NCBI GenBank assembly: GCA_040225955.1
Contig: JBECUL010000025.1
Coordinates: 1 to 32,135 of the forward strand
Reading direction: 5' to 3'
Length of the DNA: 32,135 bases
Source: Candidatus Asgardarchaeum abyssi
Lineage (GTDB): Archaea; Asgardarchaeota; Asgardarchaeia; Asgardarchaeales; Asgardarchaeaceae
Position 1 is the stretch's first letter. Each line of letters begins with the position of its first letter. Positions 21,824-28,711 of this stretch are shown in pieces. The notes beneath the pieces are model-generated. The model was given only the letters and a program-made list of their open reading frames with translations, had not been told where the DNA came from and made no database searches. The position numbers were made by a program, and so were the translations under genes.

Positions 21824-21965
21824 CACACTTTTAGAGAAAGCAAGAGTTTAATTGAAACATCCAACTAATATTTTATTATTTCTTTTGTAGAAGATGTAGA
21901 AGAGTATTGAGCAAATAGCAATTGTGATTCGGAAATGGCTAGTAAGAAAATAATTGACATCTTTA

Positions 21966-22758
21966 ATGAAAAGGAATGTTATAGGAAAGCTTAGAGATCT
22001 ATTGATGAAAAACTTAGATGATCTACCGTTAAACTGATTTGTATTTAACGCATCCCGTTTTAAAATCAAAAATTTATGGTAGTGACTTTAAACCTATAAT
22101 TCTAGAATTTTTAGGAAGACATGATATCGGCGATATCTGTAAGTTGGTAAATTCAGCAGCTCTAACAGTTATCACTTATATCATTGCGGATAAAAGACCT
22201 AAAATTATAGATAGGATCTTGGACTGGATAAAAAAACAAAGGTTGTATGACAATGGATGGCATTGGTTGCCTAAGAAAGAGACTCCTGAGAAAAGTGAAT
22301 CATGAAGTACAGCCCTAGTGTTTGCAACATTTAAAATCGCCCGAGTTGATATGAACTTTGACTCAATTGTAAAGTTCTTAGATAGAAATTGGAAACTAAA
22401 TAGGTGGGGCGGATTTCCTGAGGTAACCTTGATTTATCTAAGTTATGCTGGTTACAATAAACATGATTGGCTTGTTCAAGAACCAGTGGAGTATCTGCTA
22501 GAAACTCAACTTCAAAATGGAGCATAGGCTGGTTATTCATCAAAGACTGCTAAGGGTGGCATCTTTAGAACGTGTATAGTCTTAAATGCTCTCACATCTT
22601 TAGGTTTCACAATCGATGATGATGTTGTCTCAAAGGGACTAAAATTTATTGAAAGTAAGATACAAAGGATATTAAATGCAAAATGGGGCAGAGTGCTGTT
22701 ACAAGCATTAGGTGGGTTGGCTAGTGCATTGCTTAGCTTGGGTCTGGAGGATGTTTAA
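21966..22758 (+). pseudogene. Prenyltransferase/squalene-cyclase-repeat (alpha-alpha barrel) protein, disrupted
   Basis: QW-type repeats WIKKQRLYDNGW and YLLETQLQNGA*. One frameshift near 22032, in-frame TGA (22303-22305) and TAG (22525-22527). The frame continues to TAA at 22758. Confidence 0.8.
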
Positions 22759-22919
22759 GATATTATATTGTCAATTTAAGGTCAATAACAGAAAGTTAAA
22801 AGTATATAATTTTGCACGTTCGAAAAAAGAATAAGATATTTTAGTTAAAAATCCGTAATTTTCATATTAGAACTATAAAGGCAAGAAATATTCTCTTTAT
22901 AGAATACGTCAAAAGTACC

Positions 22920-24023
22920 ATGAGGCATGAAAATATGCATGCTGAATCGGGACGAAATGTTAAGAATATATTAAAATGGTGCATAGCCGTTGCATTCACG
23001 TTTTATTTTTTAATCCAACTTGTATTGGGGTACGAAGTAACTCTCATTGTAGCACTTATCGGTGGAATTGGTGGTCTATTTCTAGCACTTGCGGCATCAG
23101 AGGAGGCTATAAAAAGTGTTGAAGCGCTAGGCAAGAAAACTGGAATCTCTAATTATGTCGTTGGGGTTGTTTCAAGTCTTGCATCAAACTTACCGGAGAT
23201 AGTTGTAGCAGTTATTGCAGCTCTAAAAGGTTTTACAGAGTTTGCGGTACTAGTAGCTGTAATTACAGCCGGATTTAATACACTATTATTAGGTATTGTA
23301 ATAGTAATAGGAAATGTTAGAGGTCGTAGCATAAAGGTTCCTGATGAATTAATTTTCATTGAAACTCCAGTTATGAGAAGTACTATAGCTATGCTTGCGC
23401 TCGTGGTATGTTTTGGAATATTATCAGATTTATTTTCTCAAGGTCAAGTTTTTGACATTCCTCATGAGGTATCATTTTTGCTGGTATTAACATATATGGC
23501 ATATTTATTCTTCATATTCAAGTACAAGAGAGCCTTAGATGTAGCTCACGAAGAGGTTTCAATCAAAGATATAATAATACCCGCAATAATTGGTTTCGGT
23601 GGCATCTTTATAGCTGGTGAATCACTATCACGTGTGGTAGAAATTTCTGTAGAGATCTTTGGGCTTTCTGAAGCTTTCTTAGCACTATTAATCGGTTTAG
23701 CAGGATCGGTTCCTGAGCACATAATAGCTGTTGTTTCCGCAACGAAGAGAGAAGTGGGGAGAATTCATTTAGGCTTGGGAAATCTCTTAGCTGGAGTTAT
23801 GCAGTCATATCTTCTCCTTATAGGGATCATTGGAACCTTGGTAAGTATAGTCTTGGACGAGTTCATACTCTTTGAATTAGTTGCAGGTGCACTATTAATT
23901 TGGATTATGAAAACCAGTATCACGGATGATAAGGAATTGAGCATATATGAGGGCATGATGATAATAATCACGCAAATCTTTGCATTCATGATACTAATTG
24001 AAACGATTTTAATTGCTGCATGA
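22920..24023 (+). CDS. Cation/Ca2+ antiporter (CaCA, Na_Ca_ex family)
   Basis: Alpha-repeats SLASNLPE and LAGSVPEH, GFNTLL/LGNLL, about 11 TM helices. Confidence 0.9.
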   Translation: MRHENMHAESGRNVKNILKWCIAVAFTFYFLIQLVLGYEVTLIVALIGGIGGLFLALAASEEAIKSVEALGKKTGISNYVVGVVSSLASNLPEIVVAVIAALKGFTEFAVLVAVITAGFNTLLLGIVIVIGNVRGRSIKVPDELIFIETPVMRSTIAMLALVVCFGILSDLFSQGQVFDIPHEVSFLLVLTYMAYLFFIFKYKRALDVAHEEVSIKDIIIPAIIGFGGIFIAGESLSRVVEISVEIFGLSEAFLALLIGLAGSVPEHIIAVVSATKREVGRIHLGLGNLLAGVMQSYLLLIGIIGTLVSIVLDEFILFELVAGALLIWIMKTSITDDKELSIYEGMMIIITQIFAFMILIETILIAA

Positions 24024-24054
24024 GAAAAATAAAGATGTGCTAGTTCATATTTCA

Positions 24055-24498
24055 TTACTTAGGATCTCTAATGGCATCAAAAAAGCATTTTGATGAGGGA
24101 CATTTTTCTTTTAACTCTTCTAAATCAAGTTGAGCTGCTAATTGGCTTACAGTTCTACGATAGCCTTTAATATATTTTCTTCCTAAACATTCGCTGAGTC
24201 TCTTTTCTGGATAATCTTCATTTTCTGGATTTTTTGAACAAGTTGGAATAGCTGTTAGAAGCCAAGATTCTATTTTTCTATTAATTATACAGAAAAATAC
24301 CCTTTCTTGCATGTTTTCATTACTTAGCTTTCTTAAAATACCTTTAAACTTGTTTTGCAAGATTTTTGGGCTATCGTTATTTCTATCAACTAGTATAATG
24401 ACTTTATTACACTTATAATCCAAAAGTAAAGAGTGTACATAAATAGCGGTTTTTCTAACATTAAAAATATTATTTTTCCCATGTGAACAGATTATTTC
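24055..24498 (-). pseudogene. C-terminal 147 codons of an interrupted DUF4276/TOPRIM-like gene
   Basis: EIICSHGKNNIFN...VIILVDRNND...IESWLL...PE...KCPSSKCF, in frame with the N-terminal piece at 27608 once the insert is removed. Confidence 0.85.
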
Positions 24499-24776
24499 AA
24501 GAGAGGGATTAGTGACACATAACGATGGTGAATAATATAATGTTTGTAGTATAAAAAGTCTATTATTTTTGTTCTCGCAATAAAGTTTGTTATAATATAT
24601 ATGTATATGTGCGTGTTGTGAGAAGATAATTTTTTAACGCTCTATTCGAAATTAAAAAACATGTTTGTCATAGAGTTTTCGTTATGTGAAGGATGTAATA
24701 TAAATTAAGAATAATTTTTTGACATTTAATCGAATGCCAAAACACCATTACCTTCTCCTAACTCCTTTTTTGTCGT

Positions 24777-25211
24777 ATTGAGGATATTAGACAAGTTGGT
24801 GATGACTCACTTATAACCTTTAGAGATGGCGACGTTAATTCAGTCTCTATACAATTAATGAGTGATTGTCTTATTAACTTGGTACGTTTATCACTACTAA
24901 TAGTGCTTACAAATAACGACATTTTATTGCTCGAAGAACTAGAAATTGCTTTACATCCTAATTATAAAGGAATTGATATTCTGGCCGATTTGATTCTGAC
25001 ATTTTCAAACAGTGTACATTTTTTATATCCACATATAGTACAGAACTAATCCAAGCTATACTTGAGAAGGGTAAAGAGAGATAAACTTAATAAAATTAAT
25101 ATAATATAATCGATCTCTTTAAACATGAAGATTTGGTTAATCTTGAAATTCTCTCTGGAGATGATGTTCTAGAGGAAAGATGAAATATAAACAGATCTTA
25201 GAGGATGCTAG
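24777..25211 (+). pseudogene. C-terminal remnant of a second ABC/AAA_21 ATPase
   Basis: QLMSDC (signature), ILLLEELEIALHP (Walker B/D-loop), frameshift, ISTYSTELI (H-loop position), ending TDLRGC*. Confidence 0.75.
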
Positions 25212-25565
25212 CATAATCTATTAGCTCTTTGCGAAGTAATCTGTATGGCAAGGACTTTCTAATTGCAAAACCATGCCTTTTACTTTCTGTGATTTTTTCT
25301 TTTTATGAATCCTTAATATGTTAGGTGCACTCAGCAGTAGAAGAAATATAGAGACTGCTGAGGAGACATTTATCGGATAGATTATTCACGGAAATCAATT
25401 CTGTTAAGCGTGAAATACTGAACTTTTTCGAGAGGAGGCAATACAAATTTGAGTTATGAATTGGACAATATTTTTCTGAATGACTATGATGATGCAGACG
25501 AGTCCCGCTACTTTTCCACTAACCTTTTTTCAAGTACCGAATTGAGAAAATCAGGAATCGTTTGC

Positions 25566-25868
25566 CTATGGGAAGAACAGTATATTGTAGTTCACGTACA
25601 GGTATACAGTAGCCATTGCATAGTATATCAACATGGCCAAGATCATCATGAGAAGACTTCTCCTGAGGTTTTTCTTTATCTTCGGCCAGAGAATGGGCAG
25701 AACAAATAGCACAGTAATGATAATGACATATAACGGAACAATAATATAAAGAAAGTAATACATGGGCGGCGCCGGCTCTCCCGGCGGTGGTGGTGCCGAT
25801 TCTACGGATAAGTACAACTCCATGCCAACAAAACGAATAATCGATGCGAATACACTATTAACAAACAT
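25566..25868 (-). CDS. Small membrane protein with a proline-rich segment and two TM helices
   Basis: SAPPPPGEPAPP then two hydrophobic helices. AGGTGA SD, 15 bp after the transglutaminase stop. Confidence 0.7.
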   Translation of the reverse strand: MFVNSVFASIIRFVGMELYLSVESAPPPPGEPAPPMYYFLYIIVPLYVIIITVLFVLPILWPKIKKNLRRSLLMMILAMLIYYAMATVYLYVNYNILFFP

Positions 25869-25883
25869 GATTCTTCACCTGTA

Positions 25884-27292
25884 TCACTCTCGCTCTTCAT
25901 TATAATAAGGATTTGTACTGTTATACGTGAAGTGATACTCAAAATCGTACCAGTAATGCAAGTACCCATCGCCGGTTACATCTCCATAAGTAACGTTCGT
26001 ATATAGTGCATCATCAGCACCTTGTAATACATTGACGCTAATAACTTCACCAAAGGCCCGATAATATGTTGGTATATCATATAATGGTCCCGTAGGATCT
26101 GCATGTATCCATCGCTCGCCATTCCAAATCTCCGCAAACTCATGCCCCATCAGAAGAAGGCCAAATAACTTGTATTTAATATAAATCTGTCTGGCAGGGA
26201 TATTCATTGCCCGTGCAAATGAGACGTATAGAACAGTATATTCGTCGCAGACGCCTTGATACAGACCATTTGTTATAGTTTCTAATATTTTTTCGTCGGA
26301 TAAAGTAAATTTACGATATAGTTGTGTGTCATTATAGTTAAAATGGGCTTTAATCCAAGAAGTTAAGGCCAACCCTAAATTATATACAACTGTAGATAAT
26401 GGAAAATTATTACTTTCATACGGATAGTCGCATGCTTCACCCGCTTTTTTGAGAATGCTCCACTTGTTAAAATGATAAAGGTCAGACAGCTCATAGTAAT
26501 TTTCAAAAGTGCTTACTAAATACTGCACGTTGCCAAACTCGCTTCTTTTAAACCTCTGCACAAAGTTAAATCCCATATCAAATGTTACGTCGAGCCCACC
26601 ACTTATATCTACAATAACTTTTTTCAGACCTACCATGGTTATCCAATCGGAACGTAAACGTATACGTATTTCACGCCATATGGTCTCAATGTGATTGTTG
26701 TAGTCTTTTGGGCATATGCCTCCCTTTTGCTATAAAAGTATCCGTAAGGTGGGGGTGCACTAAGATACTTGTCCCACACACTGCATGCGATTGTAACACT
26801 GAAAGTATAAGTAAATGGAAGATAGCTTTTGAATTTAACTTTAATCGTTATAGTGCTCCCTCTGGTCCAATATGCGGGGACTATAGGCTCTACTATAATG
26901 ATACCTGTGGTAGCTATTCTAATATTTTCAATGTTATCTGATCTTGTTTTAGGTGGTAGTTCTAAATACTCTATATACTTGTCGTAGATATTGATTTTGG
27001 CTCTGCTGATAATATGGTATTTAACACCATCAGAAAATATACTCTCTAACATCGATACTGGCACGCTACCATTCTCTTCTGGGGTTATGGTAACTCTTGG
27101 AGTTTGTAAATAAGCAGAAGGATATCTATTTGACGAGAACTGAGATAGCGGGGCTGAAATATTCGTTGCAGATATCGAGACCGAGCTCTCATTGCTGAAT
27201 ATTACCGAATCATGGGGCAATAATGTAACTATATACGAAAAAGTAGTTATCATCAATAATATTACTAGAGATACTAATCTTTTTCGACTCAT
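25884..27292 (-). pseudogene. Secreted transglutaminase-like (papain-fold Cys-His-Asp) protein split by a 1-bp frameshift near 26640 (possible sequencing error)
   Basis: Signal peptide MSRKRLVSLVILLMI at 27292. GGA TAA CC ATG becomes GGA ATA ACC ATG with one extra A. Triad GVCDEY, GHEFAE, ADPT. Confidence 0.8.
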
Positions 27293-27458
27293 ATTACCCC
27301 ACTCACAATTACTGCTACCCAAAATTAATTTATGTGGTATAGCATTAAAAAAAATTTGGAAGTTTTCCTCTAACACCGAGAAAAGCGAAATACCTTAGTT
27401 TCAACTGGAAAAGTATGATTATTGTTTTATGCCTAAAATTGGCCGAATTTTGATGATA

Positions 27459-27503
27459 GTTATGTGTCTCGTTTTGTGTCGTTATTTTGTGACATAATAA
27501 CGA
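27459..27503. repeat. Clustered direct repeats and a 25-bp palindrome at the right end of the insertion
   Basis: GTTATGTGTC-TC-GTTTTGTGTC, then TCGTTATTTTGTGACATAATAACGA (27479-27503). Confidence 0.75.
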
Positions 27504-27521
27504 ATTCTTCGCTAATTTTTC

Positions 27522-27608
27522 CTACTCAGGAATAATACCCATTTTCTTAAGAATTTTCTCAAACACACTTTTTTCTGTTGGACCTTCTACTATTAATCCT
27601 ATTTTCAT
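27522..27608 (-). pseudogene. N-terminal 28 codons of the interrupted DUF4276/TOPRIM-like gene
   Basis: MKIGLIVEGPTEKSVFEKILKKMGIIPE* contains the TOPRIM VEGxxE motif. ATGA overlap with the ATPase stop. Confidence 0.88.
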
Positions 27609-28711
27609 GGAACTCCACCGAAAACATTTGACATCCACTGTTCTCCAAGAGGAACGCCTTCCTCTAAAAGACGTTTGACAGCATTTAATTCTTCTTTTTT
27701 CCGAATTCTTCTGAAAATACTTTGACCGTTCTGCTTTTCTATAACGATTATATCATCCACTGATACATGATTGAGAAGTGCTGGTGAGTGTGTTGTCAAA
27801 ATAATTTGTTTATCGGAGCTCTTCAATAGGTTTATTAATAATTCTAATAACCATGGATGGATTGAAACCTCCGGTTCCTCAAAAGCAAGAACATATGAAT
27901 CAGTATGCAATGCAGTGATATATGCAAGTAACCTAAATGTACCATCAGATATCTGATGATATGAGAAATTTACATCAAACCCTTTTTCTCTAATGCCTAT
28001 ACTTACTTCATTTTCCTTCTCAATTGGCGTTAATAGCTCTTCAACCTCTGGAATTGCCTCTTTTAGGGTACTTTCAATTTCGTCAAATACTTTTCTTCTT
28101 TCAGTTAATAATGTGTGTAGTACTTGTGCTAAATTTGAACCATCTTCAGAAAGTATGTATTGTTTCCTAATTCCGCATGTTGAACGCATGGCTTTTGGTG
28201 AAAAATTAAAAGTATTGATTGATGTAATAAAATCGCTTGCAAGCCTTATATTAATATCGTTCATTTCATATCTTAAAATTTGTTTACCCAAAGGCAAGCC
28301 GCTTATACTATCCTTTTTTCCCTTTATCATCACAGAATATCTATCCTCATCCGTTTTAACTTCGAAAATAGGTGTGCCATCAACAATGAGTTTTTCAAAG
28401 TCAAGAATTGTGGAGTCCCTAAATTTCTTAATTCTAAAGGTATATGAATAATAATGATTATTTAAACTAAAATCGATTGCAATTTCAATGGGTTGTTGAT
28501 TGCAAGCAAATGTTACCGCACTAAACCCTCCCAACTTAGTTAAAAACTCATCAAAAAACTCTTTAGAACTAATAAATTTTAATAGCTCTATGAAGTTGCT
28601 CTTCCCACTTGCGTTAGGTCCAATTATTACATTAAATTTACCAAGTTCAACTTCCATTTCTTTAAAACTCTTGTAGTTTTTAACATGTAATCTTTTGATC
28701 ATTATTAACAC
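27605..28711 (-). CDS. ABC-type AAA_21/AAA_15 ATPase (COG4637-like), likely start ATG 28702
   Basis: KNYKSF, GPNASGKSN Walker A, ISDGT signature, LAFEEPEVSIHP Walker B, TTHSP. Confidence 0.95.
   Translation of the reverse strand: MLIMIKRLHVKNYKSFKEMEVELGKFNVIIGPNASGKSNFIELLKFISSKEFFDEFLTKLGGFSAVTFACNQQPIEIAIDFSLNNHYYSYTFRIKKFRDSTILDFEKLIVDGTPIFEVKTDEDRYSVMIKGKKDSISGLPLGKQILRYEMNDINIRLASDFITSINTFNFSPKAMRSTCGIRKQYILSEDGSNLAQVLHTLLTERRKVFDEIESTLKEAIPEVEELLTPIEKENEVSIGIREKGFDVNFSYHQISDGTFRLLAYITALHTDSYVLAFEEPEVSIHPWLLELLINLLKSSDKQIILTTHSPALLNHVSVDDIIVIEKQNGQSIFRRIRKKEELNAVKRLLEEGVPLGEQWMSNVFGGVP

Follow-up and report, generated by a model that had tools for sequence, protein, structure and literature searches.

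What does a gene split by 3 kb of inserted DNA represent, a switch that can be reversed or a gene that is being lost? This question is raised by a locus in the uncultured Asgard archaeon Candidatus Asgardarchaeum abyssi. The stretch of DNA analyzed here (the window; 32,135 nucleotides) is the entire contig C25 (JBECUL010000025.1) of a 2.64-Mb metagenome-assembled genome with 189 contigs and 34% G+C. In it, a gene of the DUF4276/TOPRIM type, the partner of an ABC-type ATPase gene, is interrupted by an insert of 3,026 bp. An initial annotation of the window had taken the insert for a recombinase-free cargo element of an unfamiliar type, moved in trans, which by precise excision might act as a reversible switch. 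As discussed below, the insertion is well documented and of an ordinary kind, and the event would be one of gene decay, not regulation. Coordinates related to the insert are read on the minus strand, and the excision question is judged on assemblies.

The split gene and its empty site

The ATPase gene (27605-28711, minus strand; 365-368 aa) is intact. Its product matches Pfam AAA_21 (E 5e-33) and AAA_15, and the PADLOC profile for HEC-01A (PDLC04175; E 1.2e-58) matches residues 4-368, the full length. Homologues with 50% identity cover 99% of the protein, and the names given to ATPase homologues (Freyarchaeota, Njordarchaeota) are consistent with Asgard; among the species genomes a close relative was not found. 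In an ATGA overlap, the stop codon of the ATPase gene shares bases with the start codon of the TOPRIM gene, which is present as two pieces on one strand, in the correct order and approximately 3 kb apart. The N-terminal piece (27525-27608, minus strand) comprises 28 codons, MKIGLIVEGPTEKSVFEKILKKMGIIPE, followed by a TAG stop (27524-27522) that comes from the insert. It keeps the conserved glutamate of the IVEG motif and matches, in Pfam, the first strand of OLD-like TOPRIM and of DUF3226. The C-terminal piece (24058-24498, minus strand; 147 codons, EIICSHGKNN...DPK) has the IILVDxxxD motif and corresponds to positions 56-191/192 of the DUF4276 profile (Pfam, E 2e-7, above the cut-off). The PADLOC profile for HEC-01B matches this piece with an E value of 6e-7 and an intact homologue with 5e-8. 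The strand and order first assigned to the two halves are borne out by the reading of the window together with the Pfam placement, and the locus is predicted to be an HEC-01-like pair in which, as proposed, it is the TOPRIM partner of the ATPase that is disrupted.

Rejoining the pieces gives a protein of 174 aa whose alignment with an intact 171-aa DUF4276 protein, encoded beside a 50%-identical ATPase (L024), runs through the junction without a gap; the rejoined protein is also collinear with two further Asgard homologues (two loci in G046). The blocks conserved in this alignment are IVEG, IIL-D, ESWL, NPE, and EKC. The C-terminal piece has no further lesions, and its ratio of nonsynonymous to synonymous differences (pN/pS) is 0.10. 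Hence both the contiguous alignment to DUF4276 homologues and the absence of other damage in either half, the latter judged from alignment and pN/pS, agree with the initial annotation. The same is true of the uninterrupted 174-aa open reading frame (ORF) predicted on rejoining, which is collinear with intact homologues and has a natural empty site in a sister lineage.

The inserted DNA (24500-27525, minus strand) lies between codons 27 and 28 of the TOPRIM gene and is flanked by two copies of TGA, one upstream (27526-27528) and one downstream (24497-24499; both minus strand). With the slash marking the edge of the insert, the upstream junction reads ATTCC-TGA/GTAGGAAAAATTAGCG and the downstream junction CACTAATCCCTCTCT/TGA-AATAATC. 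The sister lineage, which is approximately 98% identical, carries the empty site ATTCCTGAAATAATC in two assemblies from other samples, L021 (Logan SRR21462135, 8.1 kb) and L022 (ENA ERZ23499525), located via a 97%-identical ATPase (exact-protein look-ups). Both read ...GGTATTATTCCTGAAATAATCTGTTC... across the site, and the sequence of the empty site is ATTATTCCTGAAATAATCTG. In an allele-to-allele comparison, the sister has ...GGTATTATTCCTGAAATAATCTG... where the window has ...ATTCCTGA/GTAGGAAAAATTAGCG...CACTAATCCCTCTCT/TGA AATAATCTG.... The empty site thus has a single TGA and the filled site has two, and the target lost no base. The TCA that was said to be all the junctions share is the plus-strand form of this 3-bp duplication.

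L021 and the window are syntenic to either side of the site, with genes for a kinase, a PIN protein, a 390-aa protein, and the ATPase on one side and for an Na/Ca exchanger and a giant beta-helix protein on the other; L021 lacks the 3 kb. Identity to the sister is 97-99.5% in the flanks and 98-99.5% in the TOPRIM halves next to the junctions. This close match to an uninterrupted allele upholds the suggestion that the insertion is recent.

Misassembly, the objection raised at the outset, is ruled out, as independent assemblies cross both filled junctions. One assembly, L017 (JGI 3300033145), spans both; the N-terminal junction is also spanned by L018 (GCA_054384775.1), L044 (ERZ23491052), and L045 (ERZ2433807), and the C-terminal junction by L043 (ERZ1742239). 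These assemblies come from at least five samples, and each is at least 99.6% identical to the window. The insert is carried by all assemblies of the filled lineage and is absent from the sister lineage. Some of the contigs have flaws: L020 ends in a Nextera adapter, the first 56 nt of L018 are foreign, and L044 has an N gap.

Two states in two lineages give no direction alone, and the insertion might be ancestral; a precise deletion from one 3-bp repeat to the other would then have removed it from the sister. However, the distant homologues (L024 and the two G046 loci) are uninterrupted and collinear at this position, the pN/pS of the halves resembles that of genes under purifying selection and would be unexpected for a gene long dead, and precise deletion over 3 bp of homology is very rare. 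We regard an ancestral insertion as the least probable of all the explanations considered.

The consequence is that the nuclease cannot be made. The insert adds an immediate stop and parts the strand with the TOPRIM glutamate (IVEG) from the motif of the DxD type (ILVDRNND, acidic), so that the nuclease is dead next to an intact ATPase.

Other differences between the window and the sister lie farther away. No recombination breakpoint was seen at the insertion site: the sequences to its left and right are 98-99.5% identical, and identity falls only from approximately 350 nt farther on. From near 24140, identity falls from 99.5% to 82-95% (window 22913-24140), and the gene for the Na/Ca exchanger has a pS of 0.275 relative to the sister, with the genes on either side at approximately 0.04. 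The stretch 22913-24140 looks like an import tract of homologous recombination that ends approximately 350 nt from the insertion. A second indel follows at 21824-22912, where approximately 1.09 kb with ORFs of 88 and 69 aa stands against 173 unrelated nt in L021. Its junctions are not clean and are not comparable to those of the insert.

Contents of the insert

At the 27525 end, the insert has a non-coding leader of 149 nt (27377-27525, minus strand), with a hairpin at 27503-27479 (7-8-bp stem) and two tandem copies of the motif GTTWTGTGTC on the plus strand (27459 and 27471). Two ORFs follow on the minus strand. The first encodes 217 aa with an N-terminal membrane anchor (26642-27292; 245 aa if started at GTG 27376) and, in tblastn searches and alignment against contigs C5, C9, and C99, is homologous to the N-terminal half of a family of paralogues of 438-501 aa. 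The second, of 250 aa (25887-26636), has a transglutaminase core (Pfam Transglut_core, E 2e-11). The genome has three paralogues, one on each of these contigs, with 25-47% identity and each encoded as a single protein of 438-501 aa. In the insert the two ORFs are out of frame, and the join reads IG(stop)/MVGLKK, compared with a continuous IGYTTVGLKK in the paralogues. Because the paralogues encode both parts in one ORF that is continuous at the join, the two ORFs are a formerly single gene with a 1-nt frameshift, not a gene pair.

Each paralogue unit (C5:5746-8194, C9:20986-23475, and C99:3810-6378) consists of two genes, one for the 438-501-aa protein, with an N-terminal domain of unknown family and the transglutaminase core, and a following one for a signal-anchor protein of 358-360 aa. 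Compared with these units, the copy in the insert is a frameshifted member of the family that lacks the second gene.

The next ORF, of 100 aa (25569-25868, minus strand), has predicted membrane helices and no family. It is part of a 402-nt module (window 25567-25968), composed of the 3′-terminal 27 codons of the transglutaminase ORF and the 100-aa ORF, that recurs in another context at 92.5% identity (L046:238-639 and L047:150-551; two samples). Another contig, L045 (1722-2540), departs from the window sequence within 2 nt of the module edge into an unrelated open frame, and this departure marks either a true module edge or a chimeric assembly at the word coding for GDVTGDG. In the JGI metagenomes, the best relative of the cargo has 49% identity, and none is close. 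In 90% protein clusters, the cargo is found only in the filled lineage plus L046 and L047, and longer relatives were not found.

In the last 1.07 kb or so of the insert (minus-strand reading), there is no credible gene. It begins with a fragment of approximately 53 nt (25490-25542, minus strand) that belongs to the hairpin region at the end of a multi-copy element (blastn, 86-92% identity). At least seven other copies of this element are present in the genome, several at contig ends (C20:1-1708, C49:9210-9410, C6:56400-56605, C73:950-1150, C75:9030-9230, C52:100-234, and C21:25960-26146). The hairpin, GGAAAGTAGCGGGA...TCCCGCTACTTTTCC, forms the end of the element; downstream of it lies a repeated gene whose product starts with M(P/L)xTNTSSLIDAEEYLKIIEQKLDNSQYY. 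In Pfam, this product matches no transposase family and gives weak zinc-ribbon matches only, and the element may represent an uncatalogued family of insertion sequences (ISs).

Directly abutting this fragment is a dead transposase tail of the IS630/DDE_3 type with its IS end (...TTTTTCTGAATGACTA; 25331-25486, plus strand), identified by blastn to contig C21 and by protein alignment. The recognizable relic is approximately 155 nt long and represents the C-terminal part alone, with in-frame stops where the YSPxLNPxExxW motif lies. It is 79% identical to C21 over 82 nt (E 4e-10). At the protein level, 34 aa that cover the YSPQLNPVEEIW region are 62% identical, and the window copy has stops there; the C21 copy matches DDE_3 and the bona fide DDE_3 protein P0123. 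The initial annotation had stated that the insert encodes no transposase or integrase. This is correct for a functional enzyme, as no ORF in the insert has a recombinase domain, but the dead IS630-type tail had been overlooked.

The IS630-type end also recurs in L046. Further dead relics of this type (C21:26233-26485 and L046:1640-1772) have the end ...GGACAATATTTTTCTRAATGAYTA in common. An intact copy was found neither in the genome nor, in an exact search with the IS end, among 185,579 species genomes, and a whole-library search with the C21 fragment gave four weak matches only. A match on contig C157, considered as an IS630 reference, was unrelated.

The remaining part of the insert (24500-25330) is an AT-rich stretch of approximately 0.8 kb to which searches for genes and families assigned no gene. 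Its sole ORF (54 aa; 24922-24758) has no family, and intact Asgard DDE_3 proteins do not match it. The motif GTTATGTGTC is located 12 nt from the insert end (24524-24512, minus strand). Taken together, the insert is a mosaic of decayed pieces and not a defined cargo.

Routes of arrival

Because no target base is missing and a perfect 3-bp repeat was added, we favor integration mediated by an enzyme. The account to which we give most weight, though tentatively and with somewhat less than even confidence, is a single recent integration, through a staggered cut made by an enzyme acting in trans, of 3,026 bp of non-autonomous and largely decayed DNA. A staggered cut followed by fill-in would leave the clean 3-bp duplication. 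The enzyme, a transposase or integrase of another element, would have acted once on the 3-kb segment, and the subterminal GTTWTGTGTC motifs may be its recognition sites. This motif has eight copies in the whole genome (2.6 Mb), and three of these are no more than 70 nt away from an insert end: one end has a tandem pair, and the opposite end has a single copy in inverted orientation. With a post-hoc p of about 0.01-0.04, the motif is a lead and a hint, not evidence. The five other genomic sites have nothing in common, and a degenerate tandem-motif scan of viral contigs gave 18 matches that resemble unrelated tandem repeats.

The IS630 family duplicates TA. A member of the IS630/Tc1-mariner group was rejected as the agent, as the duplication is TGA, not TA, and the IS end is located at 25486, approximately 1 kb inside the insert. 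The relic would have been dead at the time of the insertion and would have had no part in it, because it has multiple stops while the flanks diverged by only approximately 2%; and because its IS end is internal to the insert, the relic was carried along as a passenger rather than being the agent.

Several observations weigh against integration in trans. For terminal inverted repeats (TIRs), the best match is 8 nt, which was equaled in 868 of 2000 shuffles (30 nt), and a 13-nt subterminal inverted match was reached by 2-4% of the controls. A second copy of the ends or the cargo was not found in the JGI metagenomes (cargo protein), in IMG/VR (end sequence), or in the genome, where, with an assembly that is 93% complete, 7.8% contaminated, and under-assembled in repeats, the absence of further copies is unproven. 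A candidate for the trans-acting enzyme with matching ends was likewise not found. Of the transposase families, the insert shows IS630 alone, with its different duplication and its internal end, and a 3-bp repeat can arise without a transposase. The perfect TGA duplication, compared with one copy in the empty site, also represents one event. Moreover, when the terminal 60 nt were searched by short-word BLAST, only chance matches came up, and the ends have no significant direct repeats beyond TGA. The other copies and the autonomous partner that the initial annotation had suggested searching for did not emerge from the genome, the JGI metagenomes, or IMG/VR, and with no significant repeats, no recurrence of the ends or of the cargo as a whole, and contents that are mosaic debris, the proposal of an element of unfamiliar type is not sustained.

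Illegitimate recombination is a close rival, one that we consider possible though doubtful. Here, an IS-rich region, either in this lineage or in a relative, would have supplied a 3-kb fragment that was captured at a break in the gene or copied in through template switching, with TGA as microhomology and no dedicated element or enzyme. It fits an insert that is single-copy and has undefined ends, whose content could pass for an arbitrary piece of an IS graveyard (half of an element's end beside a dead IS end, and a frameshifted gene), whose G+C of 35% is near the 34% of the host, and whose cargo family, with three paralogues, is native to the genome. However, a target that is complete and has a perfect duplication needs a staggered break or copying rather than simple end joining, and plain blunt joining requires a 1-in-32 coincidence. 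Furthermore, a donor locus was not found in the assembled genome, and the rare motif at both ends would have to be a coincidence, with the probability given above.

The identical 3-nt flanks might also reflect integration of a small circular DNA, a plasmid fragment or an excised element, by a site-specific recombinase encoded elsewhere, with the crossover in the 3-nt core TGA. The predicted circle junction is CCCTCTCT-TGA-GTAGGAAAA (CTCTCT-TGA-GTAGG). This route agrees with the lack of inverted repeats, and the tandem motif array and hairpin near one end could be sites for a recombinase or a replication protein. Nevertheless, a 3-nt core is too short for the known att sites of tyrosine recombinases, there is no recombinase gene in or near the insert, and a related circular or viral contig was not found. 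We consider this route improbable.

Other types of agent were examined and rejected. For an element of the IS200/IS605 type or a palindrome-associated transposable element (PATE), a hairpin is present near the 27525 end only (z -2.5), and the 24500 end folds no better than shuffles. No Rfam family of group I or II introns was matched at E values up to 1. As to an archaeal bulge-helix-bulge (BHB) structure, the pairing of the two junctions is no better than that of 37 out of 200 shuffles.

Returning to integration in trans, there is a small chance that the insert is the first-seen member of a family of non-autonomous Asgard cargo transposons, recognized through subterminal GTTWTGTGTC motifs instead of TIRs, with a 3-bp (TNA) duplication and a partner enzyme that has yet to be assembled. 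If this were true, precise excision would be possible.

Decay of the gene pair and known systems

Is the split gene, then, a switch? The reading proposed initially, in which the insert belongs to a new family of recombinase-free cargo elements mobilized in trans and its precise excision restores the nuclease, draws on three features: removal of the insert and one TGA gives an intact 174-aa ORF, neither TOPRIM half is further damaged, and the rare subterminal motifs are in inverted orientation. Against this, no search found a second family member, the cargo itself is decayed, and among the assemblies of the filled lineage there was neither an empty-site allele nor any excision machinery.

The sister lineage points in the same direction. 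Its locus (L021:4308-5878 and the corresponding part of L022; window 28711-24058) carries 1-nt deletions in homopolymer runs, in the ATPase gene (near 27982) and, at least twice, in the TOPRIM gene (near 27574 and 24441). These three frameshifts are identical in L021 and L022, which are independent assemblies. With frameshifts in the same genes in the sister and a split TOPRIM gene in L023 (see below), loss seems common and unregulated. We therefore judge a reversible switch to be very unlikely, and the proposal falls on the missing empty allele, the missing excision machinery, and the sister frameshifts.

For both genes of the pair, the window and the sister differ by a pS of about 0.04-0.05 with a pN/pS of 0.1-0.2, as in neighboring genes. 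Because pS is low and pN/pS resembles that of the neighbors, the insertion and the sister frameshifts are both recent, independent inactivations. The simplest reading is that the ATPase/TOPRIM locus is a dispensable one that is disappearing in different ways, rather than a regulated one, because the sister inactivated both genes by independent frameshifts. The insertion would then be an event of gene decay.

Two related observations were made. L021 alone has an additional, compensating +1/-1 pair near the 3′ end. L023 (3504-4027), from a different metagenome, encodes a 50%-identical ATPase and, after it, a DUF4276 protein whose gene a frameshift has divided into 41 + 128 aa; this appears to be a third independent decay of the TOPRIM partner gene.

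In this uncultured archaeon, the locus documents at base resolution how DNA was gained and a candidate immunity gene was lost, and the states before and after the event are both present in nature. The loss of the pair by different routes in two sister lineages bears on the speed of defense-gene turnover. There is also a caution, namely that "no transposase visible" does not mean "new kind of element", as the cargo here is debris that includes a dead transposase. A second copy or a partner enzyme would raise the importance of the insert.

The skin element in sigK of B. subtilis and the nifD element of Anabaena each bring a site-specific recombinase gene of their own and are excised in response to a developmental signal. 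The insert resembles them in that multi-kb DNA lies inside an ORF and its precise removal would restore the gene. It differs in having no recombinase, no att-like repeats longer than 3 nt, and no evidence of excision. An excisable element of this type was rejected, given that the insert has no recombinase of its own and is present in all assemblies of the filled lineage.

Closer in form are non-autonomous or composite DDE transposons mobilized in trans, which likewise are discrete insertions with a short perfect duplication, no working transposase, and IS debris beside passenger genes. The insert departs from them in lacking TIRs, a second copy, and a partner transposase, and in having a 3-bp duplication versus the TA of IS630. 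Archaeal ISs of the IS630/Tc1-mariner family have been surveyed (PMC13343696). The relic shares with them a C-terminal region of the YSPxLNPxExxW type and a conserved IS end, also present in C21 and L046; in contrast, it is approximately 155 nt long, has several stops, and has its end internal to the insert.

As for the disrupted pair, HEC-01 is a candidate pair of ABC ATPase and TOPRIM proteins that gave no protection in E. coli assays (Payne et al., bioRxiv 10.1101/2024.01.29.577857). Because HEC-01 itself was unprotective in published assays, a defense role for the pair in the window is something we infer, as a candidate function. The locus shares with HEC-01 the two genes with the ATPase first, the overlapping stop and start, and the conserved TOPRIM glutamate and acidic motif; it differs in being archaeal (Asgard), outside any Hma system, and broken in the B gene. 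HEC-01 belongs with the OLD-like ATPase/TOPRIM systems (PARIS, Gabija, and OLD), and a study of PARIS places DUF4276 among the TOPRIM-type partners of AAA15/21 ATPases (PMC11464382).

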